A DNA stretch of 64,000 bases from a virus. Every line of letters begins with the position of its first letter. Position 1 is the stretch's first letter. Under the pieces are notes generated by a model that was not told where the DNA came from, ran no database searches, and worked only from the letters and a program-made list of their open reading frames with translations. The stretch is taken from IMG/VR virus record IMGVR_UViG_3300023179_000054, positions 1-64,000 of that record; one strand, given 5' to 3'. Below, piece after piece: positions 10,027 through 44,241 of the stretch. Position numbers and translations under genes: made by a program.

Positions 10027-10103
10027 TGGTCGGGGTAGCAGGATTTGAACCTACGACATCTTGCTCCCAAAGCAAGCACTCTACCAGTCTGAGCTACACC
10101 CCG
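10027..10103 (-). tRNA. tRNA-Pro (TGG)
   Basis: Full cloverleaf; anticodon arm CTTGC-TTTGGGA-GCAAG, GGTTCAAAT T-loop, encoded CCA. Confidence 0.95.
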
Positions 10104-11365: not shown

Positions 11366-11442
11366 TGGTGATTCCGTGTGGACTCGAACCACAAACCTAC
11401 TGCTTAGAAGGCAGTTGCTCTATCCGGTTGAGCTACGGAACC
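11366..11442 (-). tRNA. tRNA-Arg (TCT)
   Basis: Cloverleaf; ACTGC-CTTCTAA-GCAGT anticodon arm; GGTTCGAGT; CCA end. Confidence 0.95.
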
Positions 11443-16106: not shown

Positions 16107-16288
16107 TATGCCACTTCCTTAAAATGCTGTTGTAATTCTGGAGATAATTTCTCTAATATGTGTCCTGGAATACCAACTCTTACTATATTGGCCAATTCTA
16201 CGATGTTATTAGGAGTAATAATATTTTCATCAGGAACAAATTCATATAAACGAGCTGGTGAATGTTTATGTTTATTATCCTTCTTCAT
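16106..16288 (-). CDS. Hypothetical protein
   Basis: ORF coupled to neighbours. Confidence 0.6.
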   Translation of the reverse strand: MKKDNKHKHSPARLYEFVPDENIITPNNIVELANIVRVGIPGHILEKLSPELQQHFKEVA

Positions 16289-17846: not shown

Positions 17847-20401
17847 GAAAAGAAATCCTCTAAACTTGAGACCTTCTCGGTCTTCCACCCAATACTATCA
17901 AGGATTATTTCGAGAGGGTAAAGAAAGGCCTTCTCGAACTGTGTATCATAATCGATATATTTAGTTAAGGCAAATTCTTCTGGTATGCCGCCTTGAGGGA
18001 AAGAAATAACATTAGATTGAATAGTATTTGGTTCTTTGAGGAAGATAAACTTCAGTTTTTCACCATTCTGAATTAGAGGATACTTTGATGTTAGTCCATT
18101 AGTATTAAGGAAATGGTTATACATGAGAGCACCTCTAACGTGAATGGGAGTACCGCTGCCATAGATGGATCGTTTGTCAGCATACTTAACCAGACCATTA
18201 AGACCACGGGGGAAAGAAATATCAGCAAGTGGTAAAGTTTCGAACTCTTGACGAAATTCTTGTATAAATTGCTGAATAGCATTTTCATCTTTGTCAAAAA
18301 TAACATCAACAGCCTCTCTTAGTTTGTCTCTACATGCTGATGGTGTCGAGGACTTAACCATCTCAAGGCCCATAACTTTCTTTTTAGGTTGAGCATATTG
18401 CACACCTTCTGAGTTATGAACGTTTAGAATATATCTTTTCTTGGCAGTCCAGATTGCCTTATCTGCCAAGACCTCTCGCTTCATTACTATCTTTTGCTGG
18501 AAGACGTTAGTATATTCCCCAAGTTCTCGGCAAGCATTATCAATAACAGGTTGAATTTTATTCTCACAGACCTTATCAAGGAAGGAGATGATGCCTGATG
18601 AATTCCTAACTGCACCGTCTGCGTTAATAGTTTTGTCCACAAGAGGGCCAAGGCGTAGATACACCGAGTCTGTATCGACCGCAATAACATAATCATCCTC
18701 CGTTTTTAATATTTTGTTGAGATACTTATTAATCTCTCCTTCGATCCACCGTATTGACAATTGGCCAGTAGTCGTGACCGCAATCGCATTCCGTAGGTCG
18801 AAGAACCGAAAATACTTAGAACCCAGTGCCCCGTATAACGAGTTGAGCGATACTTTTTTAGAGAGTTGCAAGTTGTTATACCTTGCAATTCGGTTTTTGA
18901 TTTCTTTTCTTTTTTCTTTATCACCTTTTTCTTTTTCATATTCCTGTTCCGCTTCTAACATCTTTTTCTTATAAACTTTACGGTCAGCGAACATCTTCTC
19001 GACCATTTCAGGCATAAACCCTTGTTTATCACGGCGATAGAATTGTCCGTTGGCGGTTAAACAAACATCTTTATTTTTTAACCCAGATAGATCCAACTTA
19101 CGGGCCAATAGGCGATCAACACTAACACCGTCTGAAATAATGCTACGCATAGCATCATCGTAATCAACAGGCTCAATAATTGTTTCAGGAGATATATTGG
19201 ATCCCATAATGACACTAGGATACTCACTATTAACGTCAAAAGAAGCAACCCAATTATGAAATCCATTAATGGTATCCTTAACATAGGCACCCACATATGC
19301 GGCCTCCTTTTCGTGGCGTTCAATTGGTGGAACAACTACATTCTTACCTTTGAGATGATGGAAACAAATAACGTCCCACATTCTAACTTGTGCGAACACA
19401 TCCTCATAATTACATTTGTTATCATAAGATAAGGTAAGGGCCAATTCAATCAACTTATTTTTATCATCAATCTTGTCAACAAGGTCAACGTCTTTAATGT
19501 TATAGTCGATGAACTTTTGATAGTCCTCCTTATACAAGTTCAACAAAGAACCGTATTCTTCATAGGATAGTTTGCGTTCACCAAGTTCAACGTGTGCGAT
19601 ACTATCCAACTTATAGGACTCTTGTGATTTTCCGTCTTTAGCATATCGCTGGTACAAATCAAGCAAATCAAGTGTGGCAATACCTAAAATAGAATAGGAC
19701 TTAATCTTTCTATTCATACCAAGGTCAACCATCTTATCGTTGATTACACCCCACGGAGAAAGTTTCTTGGCCTCATTCTCTCCCATTAGTTTGCGAATAC
19801 GATTGACCAAATATGGTATATCGAAGTTCTGGACATTCCAACCTGTAATGATGTCAGGATATTCTGATTGCCACCAACCAAGAAACTTACGAATAAGATC
19901 AAACTCATCCGCACATTTCATATACGTAACATCATCTCTGCTATTAGAATAATCACCACAACCAAGTGTAGTGAATTGTCCGTCCATTTTAATTGTGATT
20001 GCTGTTAGTGGGCCGTTAGCATGTTCTGGTTCAGGGAATCCACCTTCTGGCGGTTCACCAACCTCGATATCGATGTTGGCCACTTTGATAAGGGACATAT
20101 CCCAATCAACAACACCTTTAAACTCATCGGCAATAAAGCAATATTGATAACGAGTATTACCATAAACTTTAAAGTTCTCAACATTATCATATTGAGAAAC
20201 GAAATCCCGGGCATCTCTAATGTTGCCAGGTTTTACCTTACCAACATAGTCGCCATGAATAGTTTTATATTTTGTGGGGGTCTGTGAAGGCACGAAAAGA
20301 GAAGGGTGATACTCGACTTTATGTCGCACCCTTCTCCCTTCTTCAACACCTCGATATAGAATTCTTCCGCCCCATACCTCAACGTTTGTGTAAAATTTCA
20401 T
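17843..20401 (-). CDS. gp43: Family B DNA polymerase (T4 gp43)
   Basis: DIE exonuclease, FDIPY, motif A SFDVNSEYPS, KVSLNSLYG, DTDS, KKRY. Confidence 0.97.
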   Translation of the reverse strand: MKFYTNVEVWGGRILYRGVEEGRRVRHKVEYHPSLFVPSQTPTKYKTIHGDYVGKVKPGNIRDARDFVSQYDNVENFKVYGNTRYQYCFIADEFKGVVDWDMSLIKVANIDIEVGEPPEGGFPEPEHANGPLTAITIKMDGQFTTLGCGDYSNSRDDVTYMKCADEFDLIRKFLGWWQSEYPDIITGWNVQNFDIPYLVNRIRKLMGENEAKKLSPWGVINDKMVDLGMNRKIKSYSILGIATLDLLDLYQRYAKDGKSQESYKLDSIAHVELGERKLSYEEYGSLLNLYKEDYQKFIDYNIKDVDLVDKIDDKNKLIELALTLSYDNKCNYEDVFAQVRMWDVICFHHLKGKNVVVPPIERHEKEAAYVGAYVKDTINGFHNWVASFDVNSEYPSVIMGSNISPETIIEPVDYDDAMRSIISDGVSVDRLLARKLDLSGLKNKDVCLTANGQFYRRDKQGFMPEMVEKMFADRKVYKKKMLEAEQEYEKEKGDKEKRKEIKNRIARYNNLQLSKKVSLNSLYGALGSKYFRFFDLRNAIAVTTTGQLSIRWIEGEINKYLNKILKTEDDYVIAVDTDSVYLRLGPLVDKTINADGAVRNSSGIISFLDKVCENKIQPVIDNACRELGEYTNVFQQKIVMKREVLADKAIWTAKKRYILNVHNSEGVQYAQPKKKVMGLEMVKSSTPSACRDKLREAVDVIFDKDENAIQQFIQEFRQEFETLPLADISFPRGLNGLVKYADKRSIYGSGTPIHVRGALMYNHFLNTNGLTSKYPLIQNGEKLKFIFLKEPNTIQSNVISFPQGGIPEEFALTKYIDYDTQFEKAFLYPLEIILDSIGWKTEKVSSLEDFFS

Positions 20402-22456: not shown

Positions 22457-23632
22457 ATGAAAAAACTTGCTATTATCGGTCGAGGAACAGCTGGATCTTT
22501 GGCCGCTGCACATTTCCTTAGACATACTGATTGGGAAATAGACTGGTATTTTGATAATGATATTAAACCTCAGGCCGTTGGTGAAGGTTCTAATTTAATT
22601 CTTCCTAATTTTTTAAAAAATTGTTTGAATTTTGAACACCATGATTTATCAAAAATTGATGGTTCTTTTAAAGCATCTATATATAAAGAAGGTTGGGGAA
22701 AAGGTCAAGGATTTCATCATACTTTTGCTCCGCCACTTTTATCATACCATTTTAATGCTAACAAATTACAAGATTATATATTATCTTTAGTTAGAAGTAA
22801 TCCAAAACTAACAATCAAAGAGCAAAATATAATTCATGATAATATAGACTCCGATTTTATTTTAGATAGTTCAGGTCGTCCAAAATCTTACGAAGAATTT
22901 CATTTATCAAAATATATTCCGGTAAATTCAGTCCATGTAAACCAGTGTTATTGGGAATATCCAAGATTTCAATATACTTTAACAATTGCCAGACCATATG
23001 GGTGGGTCTTTGGCATACCTTTACAAAATAGGTGTAGTATTGGATATATGTATAATAATAACATAAACACTCTCGAAGAAGTTAAAGAAGATATAAAACA
23101 TATTTTCACTCAGTTTAACCTTGTACCTAGCGACCAAACAAATACTTTTAGTTTTAAAAATTATTATAGGAAACAAAATTATAGCGAAAGAATATGTTAT
23201 AATGGTAATGCATCTTTTTTCTTAGAACCTATGGAAGCAACATCAATAGGAATGATGCAAGTTATAAATAAATGGTCTCTTGACTTATTTAACGATATCT
23301 CAAATATTGATATTATCAATTATAGATATTATACAGTTAACAAAGAAATTGAATCTGTAATTATGCTACATTATTTTGCCGGATCTATTTACGATACAGA
23401 TTTTTGGAAATTTGCCAAAGAGAGAGGTGAAAAGTGTATGTTGGATTCTTTAACACAAAAAAAATATAAACTTGATAGATCATTTCATGAAATGTTAAAT
23501 GATGTTGATAATAATAAAAGGTTTGAAGGATTTGGAACTTGGAATAAAGAATCATTTAAGCAAAATATAGTAGGTCTTGATGTTAGAGAAAATCTTGATA
23601 ACTTAATTAATAATACAATTATAGGAGAATAA
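22457..23632 (+). CDS. Tryptophan halogenase-family flavoprotein
   Basis: IIGRGTAG, VGEGS, GSFKASI, YGWVFGIP, FFLEPMEA. Confidence 0.85.
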   Translation: MKKLAIIGRGTAGSLAAAHFLRHTDWEIDWYFDNDIKPQAVGEGSNLILPNFLKNCLNFEHHDLSKIDGSFKASIYKEGWGKGQGFHHTFAPPLLSYHFNANKLQDYILSLVRSNPKLTIKEQNIIHDNIDSDFILDSSGRPKSYEEFHLSKYIPVNSVHVNQCYWEYPRFQYTLTIARPYGWVFGIPLQNRCSIGYMYNNNINTLEEVKEDIKHIFTQFNLVPSDQTNTFSFKNYYRKQNYSERICYNGNASFFLEPMEATSIGMMQVINKWSLDLFNDISNIDIINYRYYTVNKEIESVIMLHYFAGSIYDTDFWKFAKERGEKCMLDSLTQKKYKLDRSFHEMLNDVDNNKRFEGFGTWNKESFKQNIVGLDVRENLDNLINNTIIGE

Positions 23633-26703: not shown

Positions 26704-28146
26704 TTATTCTCCGTTCTTTAGATATATATGATTGCCTATAACAGCACAATCTAAACTTGTAGTTTTAAGTAATTCTACTACCGTTTCAGGATGACCTGCT
26801 ATAGGTTTGCCCGCTAAGTTTAAACTGGTATTTAATAACACAGGACATCCAGTTAATTTATAAAATTCCTCCAACAGTTTTCTAAAAATAGGATTTTTAT
26901 CACCAACCGTCTGCACTCTACAAGTTCCGTCTATATGAGTTATTGAAGGTAGTATATCAGATTTTAATCGACATGTAAAGAGCATATATTCGTCTTCCCA
27001 TTCCATATCGAAATAATCTTTTGCATATTCTACCAAAACGGAGGCACCAAAAGGTCTGTAGTTTTCCCTATTTTTTATTCTATTAATTATTTCTTTACCA
27101 TTAGGAATTCTTGGGTCCATAAGTATAGAACGATTTCCTAATGCCCTTGGGCCTATTTCTCCATGACCTTGATACCAGGCCACAGTTTGTCCTTCTGATA
27201 ATTTTTTAGCAATAAGTGATATAGTTTCATCTGTAGGAATATCGGAAGGAGAAATATCATTTTGCATATATGGAAATTGCGACATATCAAACATAGAAAG
27301 ATTATGTTTTTGTCTCAAATATTCAAGACATCCTAAACTCAAACCTTCATCACAAGAATGTGGTGCAATATATAAATTTTTAAAATGTTTTTTCAAAGTG
27401 GTATTCCACACTACATTTTGTGCTACACCTCCGGAATAACCAATAACATCATCTGGAGAGGCGAATTTTGAGAAAAGTTCTAATAATAATTCTTCAATTC
27501 TAAGGTGAATAGTCCTCAACCAATTGATTTTGGTGAGTTCGGAAACAAGATTATCACCTTTATAATTTATCCAACTATTATAGTTAAATATGTCGTTTAT
27601 ATTATACATATCATATTTTCTTAAAATATTCAAATATTCTTGATCAATAGTTCCATAAGATTGCAATCCCATCGCCTTACTGGCAACATCTACATTCAGA
27701 AGAGATTTAATATTTAAAGTTGTTCCGGCATTCATCATTCCCCATCCTATAGATCCGTTTTCTTTATTACCATGACTTATAAATTTCCATTTATTTTTTT
27801 TATCGAAAACAGACCATGTTTTATGATCACCTATACCATCTATAACAAAAGACACATCAGGAATTTTACCTATTAATGGATAAACACTTAAAGCATGTGC
27901 ATAATGATGATGTATGATTTGACAATTTAATTCTAATAAAGGACCATTACATGTTGCAATATCATCCATTTCATTAAATGAAATGTTCCAAAGGTCTTTA
28001 AGTTCATTTTCAAAATCACTAAAGGTTTTGAAACTGAACCTTTTTATATCTTTTGTTCTTTCAAATTTATGAAATCTTACAAATTTACCATCATAATAGG
28101 AGACACTATGATCATGATGAGTTAAACTAATACCTAATAATTTCAT
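26704..28146 (-). CDS. NodU/CmcH-family carbamoyltransferase
   Basis: HHYAHA, IDG.GD, GGVAQN, GPRALGNRS, RPFG, HIDGTCRVQ, LNTSLN. Confidence 0.92.
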   Translation of the reverse strand: MKLLGISLTHHDHSVSYYDGKFVRFHKFERTKDIKRFSFKTFSDFENELKDLWNISFNEMDDIATCNGPLLELNCQIIHHHYAHALSVYPLIGKIPDVSFVIDGIGDHKTWSVFDKKNKWKFISHGNKENGSIGWGMMNAGTTLNIKSLLNVDVASKAMGLQSYGTIDQEYLNILRKYDMYNINDIFNYNSWINYKGDNLVSELTKINWLRTIHLRIEELLLELFSKFASPDDVIGYSGGVAQNVVWNTTLKKHFKNLYIAPHSCDEGLSLGCLEYLRQKHNLSMFDMSQFPYMQNDISPSDIPTDETISLIAKKLSEGQTVAWYQGHGEIGPRALGNRSILMDPRIPNGKEIINRIKNRENYRPFGASVLVEYAKDYFDMEWEDEYMLFTCRLKSDILPSITHIDGTCRVQTVGDKNPIFRKLLEEFYKLTGCPVLLNTSLNLAGKPIAGHPETVVELLKTTSLDCAVIGNHIYLKNGE

Positions 28147-33212: not shown

Positions 33213-33440
33213 TCAATCCATATTTCCGAAGTCATTATTCAGGCGAGAAGCAGGAACGGAACCTCCACCACCGCTTGCGGATGATGAAGGACCGGAAGTA
33301 GGAAAGTTATGATGACTGGCATTAAAGGATGTAGAACCTTCACTCCAACCAGGATTTTGCCATGAATAGGCCGGTATATCATGTACCGGTTCTCCACTTA
33401 AAGAATGAAACTGTGCCAGTATAATCAAAGTCTTTATCAT
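33213..33440 (-). CDS. Small Ser/Gly-rich exported protein
   Basis: ATGA-coupled to upstream GT. Confidence 0.55.
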   Translation of the reverse strand: MIKTLIILAQFHSLSGEPVHDIPAYSWQNPGWSEGSTSFNASHHNFPTSGPSSSASGGGGSVPASRLNNDFGNMD

Positions 33441-34429
33441 ACTAAATTATTCACAAATTGGTCAGTTGCGGATTCCCATGAAAATTGTTTTGCTCTTGCT
33501 ACGGCATCTTCTCTTTTTAGTTTAGATGCCTTTACAATTGCTTCTTCATAGTGATAACTATCGGTTAGAATACCAGATTTACCATCTTCAATAATATATC
33601 GGTTCACCTCGTTGTCTAATCCAGCAACAGGTAATCCACATGCCATGGCCTCTAACACAACAAGTCCAAATGTGTCTGTTAGAGAAGGCCAAGCAAACAC
33701 ATCATATGCTGGTAAAAGGTCGGCAATCTCTTGTTGTGTTTTACGACCGAGAAAATAAGCATCTGTGTATCTTGCTTTGTATTCATCTAATTGTGGGCCA
33801 TCACCAATAACATATTTACTGATGTTAGGATTGCTTATCTCAAGGTATTCAATTAGATTCTTTTCTGCTGATACCCTACCGACATAAATGGCACGGATAG
33901 TACCTGTGTTGGTCCAAGGTGATGGTTTGAATAGGTCTGTATCAACTCCACGGGACCATATCTTTACGTTCCGTATACCCATTTTAGAACAGTAATCAAC
34001 CATGGCGGGGGTAGGTACCATAACACAATCGCTGTTTCTATGGAACCAACGAAAATACCTACCAGTAATTCTTGGTGGTATATAAGCGTGTTCATATAGG
34101 TATTCTGGATATCGAGTATGAAAGGATGTTGTGTAATGTCTTTTATATTTTTTACAATAATATCTTGCGGCAAGGCCTATACTTCCTTCTGTTGCTATGT
34201 GTATGTGTTCGGCATTCTTCACATATTCATCAGCAAGTCCCATAGGCATAATCGGCATATAAATGCCAGTTGATGGTTGTAATGGTACAGTTAGTTTGAA
34301 GAGGCCGGGGTGAACCACCTTGACCTCAAACCCTCGTTTCTCAAGGTGTTTAATAGTTGTCTTTAATGTCGTGACAACTCCGTTTATTTGGGGTTCCCAC
34401 GCATCTGTAAAAATAGTAATGTTACTCAT
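33437..34429 (-). CDS. GT4 glycosyltransferase, Agt-like glycolipid synthase
   Basis: TDAW.PQINGVV.TL, HIATEG.IG, FHTRYPEY, WSRGVD, VGRVS.EKN, DTFGLVVLEAMACG. Confidence 0.85.
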   Translation of the reverse strand: MSNITIFTDAWEPQINGVVTTLKTTIKHLEKRGFEVKVVHPGLFKLTVPLQPSTGIYMPIMPMGLADEYVKNAEHIHIATEGSIGLAARYYCKKYKRHYTTSFHTRYPEYLYEHAYIPPRITGRYFRWFHRNSDCVMVPTPAMVDYCSKMGIRNVKIWSRGVDTDLFKPSPWTNTGTIRAIYVGRVSAEKNLIEYLEISNPNISKYVIGDGPQLDEYKARYTDAYFLGRKTQQEIADLLPAYDVFAWPSLTDTFGLVVLEAMACGLPVAGLDNEVNRYIIEDGKSGILTDSYHYEEAIVKASKLKREDAVARAKQFSWESATDQFVNNLV

Positions 34430-35166
34430 CGTCTTATTATCTCAAACTTTCCATTATGGTGTTCAACAATAGCGGTACAGGATTCTACCCAGTCGCCGCA
34501 GTTTAAGTATTCAATATTATCAAAAGAACATATATTAGCATGATGAATATGGCCGCAAACCACCCCATCGACGCATCTCCTTCTGGCAGCATCAGCAACT
34601 ACCTTTTCGTAATCACCGATAAAGTTTACCGCTTCTTTGACACTCGATTTTGCCCATGCTGAGAGGGAAAAACCACGAATGCCTAATATATGGTATATAT
34701 TCTGCAAATACCTATTAAGGTCTATCATCCTATCATACAACCATCCACCTATTAAGGCAAGCCATTTGGCGTTCATCGTAACAAGGTCAAACTGGTCTCC
34801 ATGAATAATAAGGTATTTCTTACCGTTTTCTCCATAGTGTATAGCATCATTCACCAGTTTTATACTACCCATTTCTATTCCATTATACTCTCTAAGGAAT
34901 TCATCATGATTACCTGTAACGTATATAACCGGAATATCTTTCTTAGATTGTTTTAGGAAGAATTGAATAACGTTATTGTGCGCCTGAGGCCAATAGACTT
35001 TCTTTCTCATCATCCATCCGTCTATGATATCTCCAATCAAGTAATATCTGTCGGCTTCGGTTTCTTTGAGGAACTCTAAGAGTTTTTCTGCGTTTGAATA
35101 TTTGGTGCCAAGATGAACATCGGATATAAAGATACTTCTATACTTTTTCTTATCTTTACTTTTCAA
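34426..35166 (-). CDS. plcP: PlcP-like phospholipase C (LpxH-like metallophosphoesterase)
   Basis: FISDVHLG, GDIIDGW, YWPQ.HN.V, GNHDEFLR, HGDQFD, CGHIH, Y.N.GDWVESCTA; TTG start. Confidence 0.8.
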   Translation of the reverse strand: MKSKDKKKYRSIFISDVHLGTKYSNAEKLLEFLKETEADRYYLIGDIIDGWMMRKKVYWPQAHNNVIQFFLKQSKKDIPVIYVTGNHDEFLREYNGIEMGSIKLVNDAIHYGENGKKYLIIHGDQFDLVTMNAKWLALIGGWLYDRMIDLNRYLQNIYHILGIRGFSLSAWAKSSVKEAVNFIGDYEKVVADAARRRCVDGVVCGHIHHANICSFDNIEYLNCGDWVESCTAIVEHHNGKFEIIRR

Positions 35167-35221
35167 GGCCGCTCCTTTGGTTAGAAGGCCTATTATTTAT
35201 CGCACCGCAACATTAACCGTT

Positions 35222-36169
35222 TTATGACGATTTCATACTTTCCATAATATCGTCTAACGTGTATAGAGGTGTATAATCTAATAGTTCTTTTAATTTGGTA
35301 TTATCAGCGACCAGATAAGGAACGTCTCCTTTCCTTTTGCCTGTATAAACTATAGTCATTTCACCATTATGAATGATTTGATTTGCCTTGTCAACCACTT
35401 CTTTTACGGAGTATCCGTTAGATGAACCGATATTGACGGCAAAGTTTGCTTTCTCTTGTTTTTCGAGATAACGATAGGCATGTATATGGGCACGGCAAAT
35501 ATCTACCACATGGACATAATCACGAACACAAGTTCCATCATCAGTTTGGTAATCATCACCATATATTGTTGCTGTTTTATTTTTAGCAAGTATAGGAATT
35601 AAATGTGTTTCTGGGTCATGTTCTTCATATAGATTTGCTTTTACATTACGACCACAGGCATTAAAGTATCTAAGTCTTGCCACATTTATATCATCAAGGC
35701 CTTCTAATATGGTTTCACACATAGCCTTTGATTTACCATAAACTGATGTAGGATTTACTGGTTGAGTTTCAAGTATATTACCACCAAAGATATAATCTCT
35801 ACTACAATCACCATAAACTGCGGCTGTGGAAGAAAAGATAAAGTTCTTTACTCCGTATTTCTTTGCTGCGGAGATTGCTCCAAGTGTTGCCCCGATGTTG
35901 TTTCGGTAATATGAGAATGGGTTTCGTTCACCTTCTTCCACAGAAATGTATGCGGCAAAGTGGAATATGCAGTCGATACGCCCCTTTGTGGAATAAAAGG
36001 TATCGCTGACAAGATCAGCATGGATAAAATCATCATAAAGATGCCTAAGATGCGGTTTAACATCTTTATCTACTCCTATTATATGGCAGTCAGGATAAAA
36101 TGTGCCAAGTTCATGACACATATGGCTGCCGATATAACCGTTACAACCTGTGACTACGAATGTTTTCAT
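35222..36169 (-). CDS. galE: UDP-glucose 4-epimerase
   Basis: TGCNGYIGSH, HFAA, FSSTAAVYG, YGKSK, ETHLIP, DGTCVRDYVHV. Confidence 0.9.
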   Translation of the reverse strand: MKTFVVTGCNGYIGSHMCHELGTFYPDCHIIGVDKDVKPHLRHLYDDFIHADLVSDTFYSTKGRIDCIFHFAAYISVEEGERNPFSYYRNNIGATLGAISAAKKYGVKNFIFSSTAAVYGDCSRDYIFGGNILETQPVNPTSVYGKSKAMCETILEGLDDINVARLRYFNACGRNVKANLYEEHDPETHLIPILAKNKTATIYGDDYQTDDGTCVRDYVHVVDICRAHIHAYRYLEKQEKANFAVNIGSSNGYSVKEVVDKANQIIHNGEMTIVYTGKRKGDVPYLVADNTKLKELLDYTPLYTLDDIMESMKSS

Positions 36170-36804
36170 TATGAAACCTTATATTTAATATTACCAGAAA
36201 CACTTATTCTATATTCATCACTTGTATAAAATGGACATACAGAATGATTTAAAACACTAGGAAAAAACAAACCTTTACCTTCATAACTTTTATCGGTAAA
36301 TATAGGATAATTACGAATCATACCTAAAATATTGCTATAATGAAAAACAAAAGATGATGTTAAATTTTTTTTCTCATTCATTTCATTATATACTTTTTTT
36401 TCTTCTATTACATCATATGGAATTTTTATCCATATAACAAATGAAAAAATTCCAGAATGGTCATGTAAAGGATTAAATTCATGTTTTTTTTGAAAGTTGA
36501 CCCAGCAATTTTGTAAAATAAGAGGAACACCAGATGTCAGTATATTGTCACAATATTCTAAGGAACCAAAATTATAAAAATATTTTTCAACTAAAGGATA
36601 TATAATATTTCCAATATGTTCTCGACATTCAATTAATTTATATTCTTTATCAATATGTCCAGCTAAACTTTTATTACATTTAATAGATTTATCAAAATTA
36701 TTTTGTATTCCATTAACTTCATTTTTTATTGGTAATAACTGTTCTTCATCTAATTCAAATTGTAAAAATCCTAAATTAGGAAATGTAAAAGGAGTTATAT
36801 TCAT
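36169..36804 (-). CDS. 2OG-Fe(II) oxygenase
   Basis: WVNFQKKHEFNPLHDH, FFPS.L.H.V.PF, RISVSGN. Confidence 0.8.
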   Translation of the reverse strand: MNITPFTFPNLGFLQFELDEEQLLPIKNEVNGIQNNFDKSIKCNKSLAGHIDKEYKLIECREHIGNIIYPLVEKYFYNFGSLEYCDNILTSGVPLILQNCWVNFQKKHEFNPLHDHSGIFSFVIWIKIPYDVIEEKKVYNEMNEKKNLTSSFVFHYSNILGMIRNYPIFTDKSYEGKGLFFPSVLNHSVCPFYTSDEYRISVSGNIKYKVS

Positions 36805-37416
36805 TTGGATGCCGTCATCAATAGAACCGCACCACGGGCAGGTTCAGGATTACGTAAATCAGGAACACGTTTGATATCTTTAAATCCTGCTTCACTCAAA
36901 TGTTTGTGTAAGATTACCTCACAGAAACCATTAATATGTCCCATACCTGGTATTTTGTGTTCTTCTGGATGACGCCAACCACCGAACAAATAATCCATGG
37001 CATTATCCCAAGGGTTTTCATGCTGTCTTAACCAATCAACGTTGGCCTTTTCATTCCAATCCCTCTTCACAATACGTTCCATAATCCACAAAACATCAGG
37101 ACAGGAAATCTCAAAGATACCACCTGGTTTCAAAACACGATTGATTTCTTTTAATACCAAAGGAGCATCAAACTTGGTTAGGTGTTCAATAACATCACCA
37201 AGATAAATCTTGTCAGCAAAGTTATCTTCAAATGGATATGGATAATGTGTGAGGTTGTGGACGTGTGTGACGCCGGCCCACTGGTGTAAATCCATTCTTA
37301 TCGTAGCATCGGCCTTTGGATGTGGGCCTGAACCAATATCAATAATTACCATGTTATATCCTTATGCAAAGTTACCAGAAACACTTATTCTATATTCATC
37401 ACTTGTATAAAATGGA
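36191..37416. repeat. 45-bp identical direct repeat in 3' ends of two oxygenase paralogs
   Basis: ttaccagaaacacttattctatattcatcacttgtataaaatgga at 36191-36235 and 37372-37416. Confidence 0.9.
36801..37352 (-). CDS. Class I SAM methyltransferase (type 11)
   Basis: DIGSG, YPFED, VIEHL, RVLKPGG. Confidence 0.85.
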   Translation of the reverse strand: MVIIDIGSGPHPKADATIRMDLHQWAGVTHVHNLTHYPYPFEDNFADKIYLGDVIEHLTKFDAPLVLKEINRVLKPGGIFEISCPDVLWIMERIVKRDWNEKANVDWLRQHENPWDNAMDYLFGGWRHPEEHKIPGMGHINGFCEVILHKHLSEAGFKDIKRVPDLRNPEPARGAVLLMTASK

Positions 37417-37967
37417 TTCACAAAATGCCGCATTTTAGCAGGAAAGAATATAAGTTTATTTTCATATGTTTTATCAGCAGGAATAGGATGCCTTTGTATT
37501 TCACCTAAAGCATCTGTATATTGAAAGCAAAAGTTAGCAGTAATGTTTTCACCTGGATTAATGTGAGGGAATGTTTTATATTCTTCTTGTATATAGTATG
37601 GCACTCTTAACCATAAAGCAAAACTAAAAACACCTAAATGATGATGTACCGGATTAAACTCATGTTTCTTTTGATAGTTAACCCAAACATTCTCTAAAAA
37701 ATATCCATCATCTTTACAAATAAGATGTGGAAATATTTTCTTATATTCATATACTAATGGAAGTAAAAGATTTTCTATATGAGATTTACATTTAAATAAG
37801 TAATACTCATTATTGAGATGGCCAGCCAGACCTTGATTAAATCTGGCGGCCTTATCAAAATTTTTATATACTTCCTTAACCTCTTCAACAATTGGTTTAA
37901 CATCATCGTCATATAAATCAACAGATAGAAAACCTAAATTGCTAAAGTGTTGACTACTTACTTCCAT
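37362..37967 (-). CDS. 2OG-Fe(II) oxygenase (paralog of 36169-36804)
   Basis: WVNYQKKHEFNPVHHH, FFPA...H.V.PF, RISVSGN. Confidence 0.8.
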   Translation of the reverse strand: MEVSSQHFSNLGFLSVDLYDDDVKPIVEEVKEVYKNFDKAARFNQGLAGHLNNEYYLFKCKSHIENLLLPLVYEYKKIFPHLICKDDGYFLENVWVNYQKKHEFNPVHHHLGVFSFALWLRVPYYIQEEYKTFPHINPGENITANFCFQYTDALGEIQRHPIPADKTYENKLIFFPAKMRHFVNPFYTSDEYRISVSGNFA

Positions 37968-38937
37968 TCAAAGCATCCCTAATACAAAGACGGAGACTAT
38001 CATCAACCTTCATCTTTGCTTCCCAACCAAGGAGTTCTTTAGCCTTATCAACATTAGGAACACGATAGCGAACATCGTTCTTATATGCTGGTTTATGAGC
38101 AAAGGTCATAGCAGCATCAAAGGTACAACCAAACTCATTAGCAGCAATCGATCTAATCTTCCTTGCTAACTCAAGCATAGTAATCGGTTCATGATTACCT
38201 AGATTAAACGCATGACCGTTTGTCTTAGAGGAAAATGAATGTGTAGCAATTGCCTCTGCTACCTCGTCAATCCATGTGAAGCAACGGATTTGTTCACCAT
38301 CACCTAACATAGGAATAACATTAGAACGTTTAACAATAATCTCGTTCATAAAGTCAGCAAAAACATGAGAAACACCTTGTGTACCTTCTGACTTTTCATA
38401 TGGAGTTAGAATGTTAAATGGACGCCAAATGGTATAAGCAACACCATATTGCTTCTCAAAAGCAATAGACATCTTTTCACCAACATACTTTGATAAACCA
38501 TATTCCGTGTAAGGAGCAATTACAGTATCAACATCATCTTCCTTAACTTCACCTTGGCAGTTCTCATATACCATAGATGATGATGTATAAACAACCTTAG
38601 GTACATGGTTATCAACTGCGGCCTTGAGGACATTATTGTGTAGTGCTAAATCTTCACCAAGGATATCGGCACAATACATATTGAAACCACCAACACCATA
38701 AATACGTGCCGCAGCCTGAATGATTAGGTCTGGTTTAACATCCTTCACAAGAGCATTAACTGATGGACGATCTGTGAGGTCGGCCTTGCGAAACTCATAT
38801 CCTTGTCCGGCAATACCAAGACGTTCACCATAACGGCAAAGATTATCCACACCATATACAGCATGGCCATCTCTAAGCAGTTTTGGAATAACTGCCTGCA
38901 TCAAAGAACCTTCGCTTCCGCATACTAATACTTTCAT
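37954..38937 (-). CDS. NAD-dependent sugar epimerase/dehydratase
   Basis: SSSMVYE, YGLSK (YxxxK), RPFN, GDGEQIRCF. Confidence 0.88.
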   Translation of the reverse strand: MKVLVCGSEGSLMQAVIPKLLRDGHAVYGVDNLCRYGERLGIAGQGYEFRKADLTDRPSVNALVKDVKPDLIIQAAARIYGVGGFNMYCADILGEDLALHNNVLKAAVDNHVPKVVYTSSSMVYENCQGEVKEDDVDTVIAPYTEYGLSKYVGEKMSIAFEKQYGVAYTIWRPFNILTPYEKSEGTQGVSHVFADFMNEIIVKRSNVIPMLGDGEQIRCFTWIDEVAEAIATHSFSSKTNGHAFNLGNHEPITMLELARKIRSIAANEFGCTFDAAMTFAHKPAYKNDVRYRVPNVDKAKELLGWEAKMKVDDSLRLCIRDALNGSK

Positions 38938-40169
38938 TTCACATCTCCAACTTTATAAATCCCTGTATTACTTAGTTTGCTTTCTGGGAACATCTTCCAG
39001 AGGTCAGCAACAATACATCCTTCTCTAAACATATCTAATTTACAATAATCAGCAAATACTGTATGTGGTGTCATAACAATAACCGCATCATAGTCCTGAA
39101 ATGCTGGTGGGGTTTCTCCAGCAATATAATAAGGGTCAACCATCCATGCTTTTACACCATGCTTCTTACAAACCTTTTTCATTTTAAAGGCGAGAGAGTT
39201 GCGAGTATCATCACAATCCTTCTTAAATGTGGCACCAAGAATAAGGACTTTCTTTATACTTTTATTAATAACTTTAATACGATTAAAGATATAGTCAGGC
39301 ATACCTTCGTTAATAAGAAAGCTAGTGTTAATAAGATCGCCAAAGGGAATGTCAGACAACAAGAAACGGCCGTCTTTGAAGAGGCAAGGACCTCCAACAT
39401 TAGGTCCTGGATGAGGCACATCCATTCGTGGATAATCGTAATTACATGCATCGATAACTTTGTCAATATTAATGCCATGTTTTTCTCCAATCATCCAAAA
39501 CTCATTAGCAAAGGCAAATGAAACATAACGATACATATTAGTCATTAGTTTACCAATCTCAACCTCTCTTGGTGTAAGATGAAATACTTTATTACTAATG
39601 AATGTATTAAAGAATAGTGAGGCCTGTAAATAGGAATCATCAGAAAAGGCACCAACTAATTGTGGCAGACTGGAGATTTCTGTAATACTTTTACCTTGAA
39701 CGACACGTTCTGGTGCAAATACAAGATGATAATCTTTACCTTCTATCCAACCATGATTATCTTCAATATGGTCTCTAATAACCTCTGTTGTTCCTGGTGA
39801 TACTGTAGAACGAAGGACAATTAATTGTCCTTTCTTCATACGAGGAATAAGAGTATCGTCAACAAAATTAAAAAGATCATCCAATCGGGCATTACCTTCT
39901 CCATCTACTGGCGTGCCAATCATAATGGCAATAACATCAGAGTCCTTAATAGGATCGAATCCAGTAGTGAATATAACTGATTTATTGCCAAGGCACTTAT
40001 CTAATAGTCCTTTAGCATCTTCTTCAACATAAGGCACGTTGCCTTCATTTAGTTGTCTTACAATATCTTCATTAACATCAATACCATAAACTGTATGTCC
40101 GGCATTCGCAATAACTAATGAAAGAGGGAATCCAACGTGGCCGCCGGCACCAATAACAGAAACAATCAT
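38934..40169 (-). CDS. Nucleotide-sugar dehydrogenase (UDP-Glc/UDP-ManNAc type)
   Basis: GAGGHVG, GTP, RSTVSPGTT, PER, GGPCLFKD, FK....D.RNS. Confidence 0.92.
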   Translation of the reverse strand: MIVSVIGAGGHVGFPLSLVIANAGHTVYGIDVNEDIVRQLNEGNVPYVEEDAKGLLDKCLGNKSVIFTTGFDPIKDSDVIAIMIGTPVDGEGNARLDDLFNFVDDTLIPRMKKGQLIVLRSTVSPGTTEVIRDHIEDNHGWIEGKDYHLVFAPERVVQGKSITEISSLPQLVGAFSDDSYLQASLFFNTFISNKVFHLTPREVEIGKLMTNMYRYVSFAFANEFWMIGEKHGINIDKVIDACNYDYPRMDVPHPGPNVGGPCLFKDGRFLLSDIPFGDLINTSFLINEGMPDYIFNRIKVINKSIKKVLILGATFKKDCDDTRNSLAFKMKKVCKKHGVKAWMVDPYYIAGETPPAFQDYDAVIVMTPHTVFADYCKLDMFREGCIVADLWKMFPESKLSNTGIYKVGDVK

Positions 40170-41107
40170 CTTAAAGTCTCCAATAAAACATCTTCTATAT
40201 CATTACAAGTATCTTGTATAGTATGATTACACATAACATAATTATAAGCATCATCAATCTTTTTATCATTCCGTTTATGTTTACGGAGCAATTCCATTAA
40301 TTCTTCTTCGTCATTATATGTGGTGCCATAATAGCACATATCTTTCGCACCGGCAATATCTCTTGCGTACCAAGGCACTTTATTCATCATAGATTCTAAA
40401 AGGACAAGTCCGAAACCTTCCTCATAAGAGTTCATAATATAAGCATCTGCGGCACTAATAGAAAGTAATACCTCTGTCTTGTCTTTACCAAAGAAACATT
40501 TTACATTATTTGTTTCCTTTGGCATCAAATGTTCTTCACCATATCCATATAAATGAAGTTCGGCATTAGAAATCTTTGCTTTTGTAAATGCGTCTGCTAA
40601 CGGTGCCATAGCCTTGTGCGGCCAAAATCCACCTGCGGAAACAAATATTTTTTTGCCTGTTAAGTTTGCTCTTTGATATTTGTGAGGAACAATACCATGT
40701 CGAACACGGCGACCTTTATCAATAACATTCCATTTTTTAAGGTGTTCGATATCCATAGATGTAGAATAACCAAGATAAGGATGATACTGTAGTCCTAATT
40801 TACAAACATCACTATCACTTGGTTTGATTATTAGATAAAGAACAGGAGACCTAATCTTATTACCATTAAAATGAATAATGTTTTGATAATAGACATCACC
40901 ACCATGGACGATAATAAGATCCCACTTTTCATTTAGTATCTGATAATCTTTATTGACCTTTACACCATTATAATCACCTTGGTGCGTCTCTGCCAATACG
41001 GTAATGTCATGACCTCTTTTAAGCATCTCTTCGGCCATGTTCTGCACATAATACTCACTACCGCCAGGATAAGGTGCGTAGCGGTGAACCACAAACAATA
41101 ATCTCAT
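40166..41107 (-). CDS. GT4 glycosyltransferase
   Basis: GGSE, EGFGLVLLESM. Confidence 0.85.
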   Translation of the reverse strand: MRLLFVVHRYAPYPGGSEYYVQNMAEEMLKRGHDITVLAETHQGDYNGVKVNKDYQILNEKWDLIIVHGGDVYYQNIIHFNGNKIRSPVLYLIIKPSDSDVCKLGLQYHPYLGYSTSMDIEHLKKWNVIDKGRRVRHGIVPHKYQRANLTGKKIFVSAGGFWPHKAMAPLADAFTKAKISNAELHLYGYGEEHLMPKETNNVKCFFGKDKTEVLLSISAADAYIMNSYEEGFGLVLLESMMNKVPWYARDIAGAKDMCYYGTTYNDEEELMELLRKHKRNDKKIDDAYNYVMCNHTIQDTCNDIEDVLLETLR

Positions 41108-41991
41108 TATCCCTCCATAACAAACTTATCCCACCATTCATAAAGGTTGTGTAAGTCCGTATATTCATTAGGTATATCATTTTTAAAAGCAGGACGTTCT
41201 ATAATATCCAAGTATTCCTGTTTACCAGCAGGTGAATCCAGATGTTCTACATATTTAACAACATCATTTAGTGTCTTAAAATTATGGCAATTGATGAAGG
41301 CACTTGTATTGAAATCACGGTCAACCGTTGGTGATCCCCAATATATAGGCATCGTTTTTACTTGTAAAGCATTAAACAATTTTTCGGTTGTATAACCAGG
41401 ATAAGAACCATTCTCAAAACAAATATTAAAACGATAGTTATTAAGGAAGTCTAACTTATATTGTAGTTTATCCCTAGGAAGAACCTCACCCATATTGTTT
41501 AGATGTGGACCAGCCGAGTCAACATGTTTATATGTGTTAGTTAATCCAAACATGGCGTTTCGCATTTCTTGTCGAGGATTAGAAACAACAAAGGAACAAA
41601 ACTTTCTTGTATCATAATCCTTTTCATAATCATGTTTAAGACCAACTAATTGGTAATAATTGTCCGTCCATTTTTCCACTACTGCACCATACATATCGAT
41701 AACATATAGTGGCAAACGGTAATGCTTTGGACTATTCTCATGGTCGAATGTCATGGCAGCAAAACATTCATCATAGTTTGGCCTTACATTCTCACCTGTA
41801 TAGAAAATCTTTTTAACATTACTACCATACTGGCGATGTGATTGACCGAAGTTTCCATCACCATATATAAGATACTCTGGGTTATCATTTGTTATAATGA
41901 TGTCGTAATACTTACCCAGAGTATGTGTAAAGAAATTTATTGCCGTTGTGAATGTATCGGCAAAACCAATACGAAGGTTCTTGCGGGTCAT
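41107..41991 (-). CDS. GT10 alpha-1,3-fucosyltransferase-like
   Basis: FYTGEN, FCSFVVSN, ICFEN...GY.TEK, PIYWG. Confidence 0.88.
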   Translation of the reverse strand: MTRKNLRIGFADTFTTAINFFTHTLGKYYDIIITNDNPEYLIYGDGNFGQSHRQYGSNVKKIFYTGENVRPNYDECFAAMTFDHENSPKHYRLPLYVIDMYGAVVEKWTDNYYQLVGLKHDYEKDYDTRKFCSFVVSNPRQEMRNAMFGLTNTYKHVDSAGPHLNNMGEVLPRDKLQYKLDFLNNYRFNICFENGSYPGYTTEKLFNALQVKTMPIYWGSPTVDRDFNTSAFINCHNFKTLNDVVKYVEHLDSPAGKQEYLDIIERPAFKNDIPNEYTDLHNLYEWWDKFVMEG

Positions 41992-42587
41992 TACTTATAC
42001 CAGAAGAAAGCGGAATTTGTAGATAGATTAATTGGTGCTGTGATACTATAATCATTACGAAATTCATTTACAGCCCGACTTACTGCCTCGATAGAAGAAT
42101 AATCATGGCCACAGAATAGTCCACCCTTCTTCAATAAAGGATAATACTTTTCACAGTCCATATATGTTGCTCCATATGAATGGTCGCCATCAACAAAGAT
42201 AAAATCAAACTCTTCTTTATCGGTAATAGACTTAATCTTATCAGCAGCATCCTCGGATGTTTCTCTAATCATCTCTACTCGATCACCATATTGTTTTAGG
42301 TTCTCTTGTGCGATCATCATAAACTTATCAATAACTTTTTGTGTAATCTCACCATTCCAATCATCATAAGCCTTGTATGGGTCAATCGTGTATAGTTTAA
42401 TAATGTTAGGGCATTTATCTAATAGAAATGCGGTTGACTCGGCACGGCAAGTGCCAATCTCTAAACCTACAACATTCTCACCAAGTCTTTTAACATAAGG
42501 TGCCAGTCCTTTTACTGATACCCAATCATAAGGCCATTTATCACCAAGTTCTTTAATCGTCATAAAATCTTCATCAGTCAAAGCCAT
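41991..42587 (-). CDS. Methyltransferase (family 24)
   Basis: EIG...S, FVDGDHSY, GGLFCGHDY. Confidence 0.85.
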   Translation of the reverse strand: MALTDEDFMTIKELGDKWPYDWVSVKGLAPYVKRLGENVVGLEIGTCRAESTAFLLDKCPNIIKLYTIDPYKAYDDWNGEITQKVIDKFMMIAQENLKQYGDRVEMIRETSEDAADKIKSITDKEEFDFIFVDGDHSYGATYMDCEKYYPLLKKGGLFCGHDYSSIEAVSRAVNEFRNDYSITAPINLSTNSAFFWYK

Positions 42588-42589
42588 CT

Positions 42590-43489
42590 TTAATCTCCAA
42601 ACTTATTTGTAAATAATTCTTTCCACTCAGGCACACGGTCCCACTGGTGTATTACCGATACTTTATTTCCGTTTGCGTAAACTTCATTATTGATTACATT
42701 ATATTCTATTTTACTCACAAATGGCAAGTCAATATTAGGATTTGCTCTATATGCTTCACCAATACCACCTGAACCGGCCTGAATAGCAGGCAGAGATGTG
42801 CCAGCATGAACAACCCAAGCATCGGAAGGATTTGTAAATTTAGTTGATAATGAATATACTTCCGATTGTAGAAGGACATTTAGTGCGGCTTGGTCTGGAC
42901 CACCGCCGCCTGGAACATGTGGATTTAGTCCACGACAAATCAACCAGACATTAAGTGCCAAGTCTTTCATAGCATTTCTTGAACCGGCAATAACACCAGC
43001 ACAATAGATTTCATTATCACCATATGTTTCAAGGAAATACTGACCGAAAGCCTGCTGTAAATTATTTCTTCCCCATGGTTCATCTTTATACTTTAGATTT
43101 TCCGAACCAACAAGAATATTTCCAAAAAAGTTTTTGTCTAACCATTTAGATGGATCGTCCTGAAAGATAACATCTCTAACATCGGTCATAATAACATTTT
43201 TGACCGGTTCACTTAATAGATTTAGAAAACTATAAAGATGGAAGAAGCGGTCAACCATAACAGAACCACGAGAATTATCATGAGAGAATCCAGTTTTTTC
43301 ATCATATTGATTACAACCAATCAACATAAATCCTTCGGCAGTAAGTTTTCTTACCGTCTCGGCATCCATGTTATAAACAATAAGTGCCTTGTGTCCAGTA
43401 AAACCAGACTTTTTGATAGAGTTGGCCCAGTGTTGTATCTGTTCCCATCTATATCTATCAACTACACCTACAACTATATCTTTGTCCAT
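42590..43489 (-). CDS. Putative nucleotide-diphospho-sugar transferase
   Basis: TDVRDVIFQ, DQAALN, HQWDR; cluster context. Confidence 0.6.
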   Translation of the reverse strand: MDKDIVVGVVDRYRWEQIQHWANSIKKSGFTGHKALIVYNMDAETVRKLTAEGFMLIGCNQYDEKTGFSHDNSRGSVMVDRFFHLYSFLNLLSEPVKNVIMTDVRDVIFQDDPSKWLDKNFFGNILVGSENLKYKDEPWGRNNLQQAFGQYFLETYGDNEIYCAGVIAGSRNAMKDLALNVWLICRGLNPHVPGGGGPDQAALNVLLQSEVYSLSTKFTNPSDAWVVHAGTSLPAIQAGSGGIGEAYRANPNIDLPFVSKIEYNVINNEVYANGNKVSVIHQWDRVPEWKELFTNKFGD

Positions 43490-44241
43490 GGATATTTCCC
43501 TTCATAATATTGTTCTTGTGTTCTATTACCTGCCTCGAAAAACTCTTTTGTTACTGAATTAGGATTACCATCTAAACGGTAGCAAAGTGTATGCTTACCA
43601 TTTGTATCATACTTAGCATATTGTTTAACAGAATAAAAATACTGGCGATCACCACCCCAACCGGCGTGCCAGAAATGGCATGTCTTTTGTATGAACTCTC
43701 TCTTCCAACAAAATGATGATGTGTCAATTAAGAACTGTTCACCATGAGGAGAGCGGCGTGACATGAATATTGGCCATTTGCCGAGGCTTTCACAATTATC
43801 ATCGGTAATATACTTTCCTTCTGGCGAGTATATCTTACGGAGTGAGAAAGAGAAATCCAAGTTTTTACTCTCGGCAGTCTGCACAAGGGTCTCAACGTGA
43901 TCACTTTCATACCAATTGTCCTCATCAAGAAACATAATATAATCGGAATTTAATAGATGTGGCATAGCAGCATAGATACGATGACCATAAAAATCACCGC
44001 CTGTTTTGCCTGTATTTTCTGGAAGAATAAGAACTTTTACTTTATCTTTTGGTGGTAAACCAACTTGTTCAAATACACCGTTGACAAATTCTTTACCATC
44101 AACTACAATAAGGTGTTTAATGTGTTTATAGGTTTGTTTCTCAACACTATCTAAGGCATCTTTTAGTTTTGGTGAACCAATAGTGGGGGTTATGACCGTG
44201 ACGGTCTTAGGTTTGGAAGTATCTTCAATCACAAGTTTCAT
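43474..44241 (-). CDS. GT2 glycosyltransferase
   Basis: VITPT...SV..QT...VVDG, FLDEDN. Confidence 0.85.
   Translation of the reverse strand: MKLVIEDTSKPKTVTVITPTIGSPKLKDALDSVEKQTYKHIKHLIVVDGKEFVNGVFEQVGLPPKDKVKVLILPENTGKTGGDFYGHRIYAAMPHLLNSDYIMFLDEDNWYESDHVETLVQTAESKNLDFSFSLRKIYSPEGKYITDDNCESLGKWPIFMSRRSPHGEQFLIDTSSFCWKREFIQKTCHFWHAGWGGDRQYFYSVKQYAKYDTNGKHTLCYRLDGNPNSVTKEFFEAGNRTQEQYYEGKYPWTKI

Follow-up and report, generated by a model that had tools for sequence, protein, structure and literature searches.

A plcP-agt-like gene pair in T4-like phages and its likely role in remodelling the host membrane

A 64,000-nucleotide stretch of viral DNA, positions 1 to 64,000 of the IMG/VR record IMGVR_UViG_3300023179_000054 (here called the window), belongs to an uncultured T4-like phage of a lake and carries two overlapping genes that very probably encode a phospholipase C of the PlcP type and a family 4 glycosyltransferase (GT4) of the Agt type. 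We consider it likely that the pair is a phage version of the plcP-agt operon by which bacteria renovate their lipids, and that it would remodel the host membrane and make phosphorus available. By this route the phage may free phosphorus held in the membrane, and the balance of the evidence tips somewhat towards phosphorus economy as its main benefit. Membership of the two protein families, intact catalytic residues, conserved pairing and purifying selection were all observed in the phage genes. The pair had previously been proposed, from the nucleotide sequence and without database searches, as a membrane lipid remodelling module; here, we describe a computational analysis of that proposal. 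The window is part of a 92-kb record with an estimated completeness of ~54%.

Both open reading frames (ORFs) were confirmed on the minus strand at the positions assigned to them earlier (Table 1), and both are judged to be real genes because their best relatives reach E-values of 1e-160 for the metallophosphoesterase and 1e-218 for the GT4. The AAAGGAGCGG...TTG arrangement at the start of the plcP-like gene is kept in relatives. Each of the motifs previously picked out in the metallophosphoesterase was found in its translation: FISDVHLG, GDIIDGW, YWPQ.HN (as YWPQAHN), GNHDEFLR and N.GDWVES (as NCGDWVES). The protein matches the Pfam family Metallophos (PF00149, 49 bits) and no more specific Pfam family, and its source annotation is UDP-2,3-diacylglucosamine hydrolase. 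On hidden Markov models (HMMs) of LpxH it scored 44-50 bits, the curated cut-offs being 190 for TIGR01854 and 134 for NF003743. Two Pseudomonas genomes possess both paralogues; in these, true LpxH reached 332-334 bits and its PlcP-type counterpart 42-46. A phmmer search with the phage protein recovered these PlcP-type paralogues at 285-292 bits and gave no match to the Pseudomonas LpxH proteins, and the LpxH chains in the PDB matched it with an E-value of 5e-7 at best. The metal-binding set (DxH, GD, GNH[D/E], H, GHxH) is complete in the phage metallophosphoesterase, and residues D16, H18, D46, N86, H87, H122, H206 and H208 are invariant in an alignment of 16 viral and 87 other sequences. At five discriminating sites, the phage protein and 87 PlcP-like sequences read GD(I/V)(I/V)DGW (GDIIDGW in the phage), WPQxHN, GNHD, GHIHH and GDWVES, whereas LpxH has GDxxE(V/A)W, GNRD, GHTHR and GDW-(D/N/E)R and no counterpart of WPQxHN.

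Phylogeny and gene order point the same way. In a maximum-likelihood tree of 107 sequences, with the characterised PlcP proteins represented by orthologues from Rhizobiaceae, Methylocystis and Pseudomonas, LpxH was set apart by a long branch with a Shimodaira-Hasegawa-like approximate likelihood ratio test (SH-aLRT) value of 100. The phage clade (14 rows, support 100) nested within the PlcP-like group and not with true LpxH, flanked by a gammaproteobacterial set that includes Pseudomonas and by a 74-row alphaproteobacterial clade. The AlphaFold 2 (AF2) model of the protein, with a predicted local distance difference test (pLDDT) score of 87, consists of a metallophosphoesterase core with a long helical insertion at residues 124-196 and is LpxH-like. 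Its top structural matches are LpxH-lipid X complexes (18-20% identity, Foldseek E ~1e-11), a match that fits a lipid substrate for the modelled enzyme without saying which lipid. LpxH resembles the phage protein in its calcineurin-like core and helical insertion and is the nearest solved structure, but the two differ in their low identity, in GNHD in place of GNRD, in the presence of WPQxHN, in scores below the curated cut-offs and in falling into separate clades. The earlier assignment to PlcP rather than LpxH is borne out by the HMM scores, the discriminating residues, the phylogeny and a gene order held in common with bacterial operons, and the identification of the predicted first protein as PlcP-type, not LpxH, is strongly supported. 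PlcP enzymes of lipid renovation are Mn-dependent, convert phosphatidylethanolamine, phosphatidylglycerol or phosphatidylcholine to diacylglycerol and are induced through a Pho box when phosphate is scarce; an activity of this kind is predicted for the phage protein.

The stop codon of the plcP-like gene and the start codon of the agt-like gene share an ATGA overlap of 4 nt, in agreement with the translational coupling proposed for the pair, and the expected N-terminal motif of the GT4, TDAW.PQ.NGVV.TL, is present as FTDAWEPQINGVVTTL. The agt-like protein matches the Pfam GT4/GT1 families PF00534 and PF13439, and its AF2 model (pLDDT 92) adopts a GT-B fold that matches MshA best, with GlgM, BshA and PimB' also among the top matches. 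MshA was also the template used for modelling GTcp, and the GTcp clade is marked by a His104-Asp256 dyad, in which Asp stands where GT4s canonically have Glu, and by the motifs GRVAxEKN and FPSxTDTFG, its donor-site residues being essential by mutagenesis (PMC8231724). All 11 essential GTcp residues are kept in the phage protein (G17, G82, G85, H104, R185, K190, D252, T253, F254, G255 and E260), in which the two motifs read GRVSAEKN (184-191) and WPSLTDTFG (247-255). The same columns are kept in 29/29 viral and 51/51 bacterial sequences, apart from G17, where one viral row has a gap, and F254, which is Tyr in two of the bacterial rows. Glu occupies the dyad position in three other GT4s, including a second GT4 of the window at 40166-41107.

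The phage GT4 shares with GTcp of Pelagibacter sp. HTCC7211 and Agt of Agrobacterium tumefaciens (Atu2297) the His104/Asp dyad and the motifs GRV(A/S)xEKN and (F/W)PSxTDTFG (PMC8231724). Also common to them are the donor-site residues (Gly82, Gly85, Arg, Lys, Glu) and the GT-B fold, for which MshA is the top structural match. The phage GT4 differs from GTcp by one substitution per motif (A to S and F to W) and in length (330 aa compared with 334 aa). Membership of the clade was judged by an identity well above the <25% that the Agt/GTcp clade shows to other GT4s. Along its whole length the agt-like protein shares 35-42% identity with the GT4s encoded directly downstream of bacterial plcP, and it is 39-42% identical to the single homologue in A. 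tumefaciens (40%), M. loti and Rhizobium, whereas the other GT4 of the window does not exceed 21% identity to any sequence of the set. The viral agt-like GT4s form one clade with support of 100. Catalytic residues and shared gene order thus uphold the Agt reading, and it is strongly supported at the sequence level that the second protein is of the Agt/GTcp type; members of this clade pass Glc, Gal or GlcA from a UDP-sugar to diacylglycerol, and a transfer of this kind is predicted for the phage enzyme.

A bacterial counterpart of the whole pair was found among the 80 best matches in representative bacterial genomes, which come from Hyphomicrobiales, a few other Alphaproteobacteria and some Gammaproteobacteria (48-55% PlcP identity, including Pseudomonas). 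In 49 of the 80 loci, including Methylocystis, the next gene downstream has the same orientation and encodes a full-length homologue of the phage GT4 (E 1e-58 to 1e-76). Genomes in which no such GT4 adjoins plcP (A. tumefaciens, M. loti, Rhizobium) contain one strong homologue elsewhere. In Methylosinus trichosporium OB3b, which is related to Methylocystis, knockout of plcP-agt has demonstrated that the operon makes glucuronosyl-diacylglycerol and matters for growth at phosphate limitation, and the layout is reported to be common to all type II methanotrophs (PMC9239053); a plcP-glycosyltransferase arrangement has also been described in marine bacteria (PMC4796936). The bacterial operon and the phage pair have in common the two protein families, their order and strand, their catalytic residues and a TGTCAT-type element upstream, with identities between the phage proteins and the Hyphomicrobiales pairs of 48-55% for PlcP and 35-42% for Agt. 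Unlike the bacterial operon, the phage pair is carried by a T4-like phage, has a GC content of ~38%, is preceded by a T4-type late-promoter motif and has been transferred between phage lineages. The phage genes overlap by 4 nt, whereas the bacterial genes stand 60-120 nt apart, and the phage PlcP is without the C-terminal tail present in many bacterial PlcPs.

The pair is widespread and persistent in phages. Relatives at 52-88% identity were recovered from 51 IMG/VR contigs, four of which (L022, L039, L052 and L053) are truncated or without one gene. In each of the 47 informative loci the GT4 directly follows plcP. Directly upstream of the pair lie phoH in 12 loci, a ykuD-type transpeptidase gene in 8, galE in 3 (not counting the window and L025, where galE is nearby) and other genes in 23; four further loci end there at the contig boundary. 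A compact phoH-plcP-agt unit with nearly no spacer occurs at L019:5231-5989 and in 11 further loci. The ratio of nonsynonymous to synonymous substitution rates (dN/dS) is 0.05-0.21 for both genes, and on this measure both are under purifying selection.

The DNA polymerase of the window (17843-20401) is 85% identical to that of a related 165-kb, 99% complete genome (G010) and 48% identical to those of two others (G011 and G013), but its PlcP is 87% identical to all three copies alike. From this discordance we conclude that the cassette has moved by exchange between distantly related T4-like lineages. Identities of PlcP and Agt are out of step in some loci (87% and 94% in L024, 87% and 79% in L004), and there are hints in the sequences of recombination within the cassette.

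More divergent relatives occur without an adjacent agt in Pelagibacter phage Mosig, where a plcP homologue of 43% identity stands beside pstS, and in cyanophage S-SRM01; both are annotated as UDP-2,3-diacylglucosamine hydrolase. In Mosig the plcP homologue and pstS are divergently oriented, and their common 150-nt spacer (L001:7854-8003) contains TTAAC(A) four times, with an 11-nt distance between two of the copies, followed by TATAAT. This spacer may be a Pho-type control region. The cassette resembles the phosphate-stress genes of T4-like phages (pstS, phoH, phoA) in being host-derived and tied to phosphate limitation: it directly follows phoH in 12 relatives, stands beside pstS in Mosig and has a candidate Pho box. 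It differs from them in targeting membrane lipids rather than phosphate uptake and in being a two-enzyme pathway instead of a single gene.

The host was approached through the relatives. Full-length pmoC/amoC (354-363 bits) was found in four of the five related records searched (G010, G011, G013 and G015), including both near-complete genomes, and the G010 PmoC is 85% identical to that of Methylocystis silviterrae. Because its relatives carry a Methylocystis-like pmoC, the phage clade of the window is placed by these sequences with the published pmoC-phages of freshwater lake methanotrophs, whose genomes start at 159 kb and whose description makes no mention in its main text of lpxH, lipid, phoH or phosphate (Chen et al. 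2020, PMC7674155). Carriage of pmoC is shared with those phages by the relatives, among them G010 with its 85% polymerase identity to the window, but no pmoC was found in the window's own fragment. A type II methanotroph with its own plcP-agt is the probable host. Recent capture of the cassette from Methylocystis is unsupported, the phage PlcP being 54% identical to that of Methylocystis and the phage clade branching outside the alphaproteobacterial clade. The distance from Methylocystis is much greater for PlcP (54% identity) than for PmoC (85%), and on this divergence the cassette is an old resident of phage genomes.

Two elements upstream of the pair bear on its regulation. The ATAAATA core that had been noticed before the pair is present and is conserved in relatives. 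The window version, GATAAATA, matches the T4 late consensus TATAAATA at 7/8 positions, and most relatives with an intergenic spacer have TATAAATA or ATAAATA 31-35 nt before the start, several with a perfect TATAAATA. In the window ATAAATA is depleted relative to shuffled sequence (19 occurrences compared with 38 expected), as is TATAAATA (5 compared with 10), a depletion that fits selection against stray late-promoter motifs. Because the motif is both depleted elsewhere and conserved in relatives, a late promoter upstream of the pair is plausible. Where the pair lies behind phoH with no spacer, it is presumably co-transcribed with phoH.

The sequence-only reading had also held that no Pho box precedes the pair and that the pair is uncoupled from host PhoB. 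The former statement is doubtful and the latter is not a safe conclusion, as a Pho-box-like 19-mer overlaps the galE stop codon (Table 1) and has no other match in the window. The element reads CTGTCATAAAACGGTTAAT in L003 and L024 and recurs in L025-L028 and L043-L045 despite different upstream coding sequences. It stands at a constant 11 nt upstream of ATAAATA while the sequence of the spacer varies, and it occurs a single time, at the same place, in the 165-kb G010. Upstream of bacterial plcP, TGTCAT is the top enriched hexamer (47/80 loci), with evident tandem GTCAT repeats. A search of the window for the E. coli-type Pho box CTGTCAT-N4-CTGTCAT with up to 3 mismatches gave matches not above chance; pstS was not found in the five relatives searched, and neither pstS nor phoH in the window's own record. 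On these patterns we give about an even chance that the Pho-box-like element is a functional PhoB site.

What the two enzymes act on and make, when and under what control they are expressed, and what the phage gains are inferred from these features, as follows. The PlcP-type enzyme would cut the phosphate head group from host phospholipids, phosphatidylethanolamine or phosphatidylglycerol, to leave diacylglycerol and a phospho-alcohol, and the Agt-type GT4 would then move a sugar from a UDP-sugar onto the diacylglycerol to yield a phosphorus-free glycolipid. The membrane would remain a bilayer, and its phosphorus would enter a soluble pool usable by the infected cell. Transcription would most likely start at the T4-type late promoter, and the Pho-box-like site of the window and some relatives may add control by the host phosphate sensor. 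In a host with its own plcP-agt, the phage genes would keep up or strengthen a stress response of the host while infection lasts.

Several observations weigh against this route or its parts. The product of PlcP is a phospho-alcohol rather than free phosphate, so a phosphatase is still required; none is seen in the cassette, and pstS was not found in the two near-complete relatives. A late promoter suits the supply of phosphorus for DNA synthesis less well than an early promoter would. The second half-site of the Pho-box-like element is weak (4/7 consensus match), many relatives are without the element, and in G010 it was not found before any other gene. The assignment of a methanotroph host rests on relatives, as pmoC was not found in the window's own 92-kb record. 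In the trees, the characterised PlcP and Agt proteins (SMc00171, MED193_17359, PB7211_983, PB7211_960, PA3219 and Atu2297) are represented by orthologues from their genera, and membrane remodelling by the phage copies is deduced from the genes themselves.

The same chemistry could also serve another end, the exchange of phospholipid for glycolipid altering the envelope with respect to other phages or grazers and the gain of phosphorus being a side effect. Membrane lipid composition has been reported to influence phage attachment and grazing (PMC9938194, PMC9804370 and PMC9457565), the pair stands at the end of a large glycan-modifying cluster in the window, and late expression would suit the protection of an already infected cell. 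In most relatives, however, the pair is away from the glycan cluster, and a phosphate-stress gene is its neighbour in 12 of them, where phoH precedes it, as pstS is of the plcP homologue in Mosig; a Pho-box-like site precedes the pair, and PlcP and Agt target bulk glycerolipids, for which no role as receptors of T4-like phages is established. We therefore regard a primary role in altering the envelope as unlikely. A role in late lysis or egress, in which the phospholipase would weaken the cytoplasmic membrane at the end of infection, is less probable by some distance. A late-type promoter ahead of a phospholipase C-type activity would suit it, but no holin or endolysin adjoins the pair, and the phospholipase is coupled to an enzyme that rebuilds a bilayer lipid, the two never being apart in the 47 informative relatives. 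That coupling argues for maintenance of the membrane and makes an aid to lysis unlikely.

Two further explanations are effectively excluded. That the first protein is a true LpxH, which works on lipid A or lipopolysaccharide in concert with the sugar genes nearby, would accord with its database label of UDP-2,3-diacylglucosamine hydrolase, with LpxH as the nearest solved structure and with the lipopolysaccharide-like glycan cluster upstream. It is opposed by scores far below the LpxH model cut-offs, by the want of GNRD and other LpxH-type residues, by separation in the tree and by the 18-20% identity, and the HMM cut-offs, residues and phylogeny together leave it almost no probability. The genes might also be bacterial contaminants, or passengers in decay that do nothing for the phage, since the contig is metagenomic and incomplete; this is just as improbable, given that T4-like core genes flank the pair and that the cassette occurs in phage genomes 99% and 98% complete. 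The local GC content at the pair (~38-41%) lies within the 30-43% range of the window, dN/dS is low and the catalytic residues are all kept. The reading that we prefer remains a phage-borne plcP-agt pathway.

The genomic surroundings of the pair are those of a T4-like phage. Almost all genes of the window are on the minus strand, and its core includes a gp43-type DNA polymerase, a DnaB/gp41-type helicase, a gp44 clamp loader and an SbcC/gp46-like nuclease. Extras typical of aquatic myophages are three halogenase-like genes, a carbamoyltransferase, CobS and Hsp20. The tryptophan-halogenase-like genes (phrog_2928; 2167-3444, 16275-17888 and 22457-23632) and the carbamoyltransferase (26704-28146) constitute a scattered set of tailoring enzymes. 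Two tRNA genes, tRNA-Pro(tgg) at 10027-10103 and tRNA-Arg(tct) at 11366-11442, are present as an identical pair in identical order in Pelagibacter phage Mosig. A megablast search of phage GenBank records gave no match, and the GT4 has no close homologue among those records.

Upstream of the pair, an eleven-gene glycan cluster (35222-44241) comprises a GT2, a 299-aa ORF, a methyltransferase, a GT10 fucosyltransferase-like gene, the second GT4, a sugar dehydrogenase, an SDR epimerase, a 2-oxoglutarate (2OG) oxygenase, a second methyltransferase and another 2OG oxygenase, and galE; a Pfam search with the 299-aa ORF gave no match. The sequence-only reading had set the pair downstream of galE and a nucleotide-sugar dehydrogenase. 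Both are indeed there, but they do not amount to a general functional link, as this sugar-gene context is common only to the window and four loci (L025 and L043-L045), 12 relatives have phoH instead, and the dehydrogenase, to judge by its model scores, looks more like a UDP-ManNAc than a UDP-glucose dehydrogenase. It is possible but unproven that galE supplies UDP-galactose to the pair. The 75-aa ORF downstream was rejected as a third member of the cassette, being kept only in relatives of the same context (L025 and L043-L045). A scan for terminators and sigma-70 promoters around the pair gave no excess over shuffled expectation.

Table 1. Positions in the window of the gene pair, its upstream elements and neighbouring genes
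Feature	Position	Strand	Description
plcP-like gene	34426-35166	minus	246-aa Mn-type metallophosphoesterase, predicted PlcP (phospholipase C) group; TTG start
agt-like gene	33437-34429	minus	330-aa retaining GT4, predicted Agt/GTcp glycolipid-synthase clade; ATG overlaps plcP stop
Shine-Dalgarno AAGGAG	35172-35177	minus	5 nt ahead of plcP TTG start
ATAAATA	35194-35200	minus	T4-type late-promoter core, could double as -10 element; 28 nt before plcP start
Pho-box-like 19-mer TCGTCATAAAACGGTTAAT	35212-35230	minus	overlaps galE stop codon; sole match in window
galE (UDP-glucose 4-epimerase)	35222-36169	minus	TIGR01179 268 bits, cut-off 262; final gene of glycan cluster
Nucleotide-sugar dehydrogenase	38934-40169		in cluster upstream of pair; UDP-ManNAc dehydrogenase model 218 bits, UDP-glucose dehydrogenase model 119 bits
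75-aa Ser/Gly-rich ORF	33213-33440	minus	ATG overlaps agt stop (ATGA)

Full-text searching of the literature on PlcP in connection with phages, viruses or auxiliary metabolic genes turned up no description of either enzyme being encoded by a phage, in keeping with the earlier remark that the pair is not known to have been characterised as a phage auxiliary pathway. A Lake Baikal viral metatranscriptome files 'lpxH' under lipopolysaccharide synthesis, and viral gene surveys routinely count the gene as lpxH in that pathway (for example PMC9611531). The routine lpxH label in viral surveys misreads the likely role of the gene. The most complete form of our proposal is that a mobile plcP-agt or plcP-only cassette is carried by methanotroph phages and separately by phages that infect SAR11 and cyanobacteria, where, under joint control of a late promoter and host PhoB, it would convert phospholipid to glycolipid, supply phosphorus for phage DNA and keep the cell intact, forming an undescribed class of pathway filed as 'lpxH'; taken as a whole, we hold this form tentatively, at slightly short of an even chance. 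The cassette is readily testable, as it encodes two small soluble or peripheral enzymes for which assays are known, and mutants exist in Methylosinus and Phaeobacter.

Phage particles are rich in DNA, and for this reason phosphorus is often what limits phage production; the known answers of phages are the uptake genes pstS and phoA, together with phoH. The plcP-agt cassette, if it acts as proposed, would constitute a second phage route to phosphorus, drawn from the host's own membrane. Infection would then alter the lipid composition of aquatic bacteria, methanotrophs among them, with a bearing on lipid biomarkers, grazing and phage adsorption.

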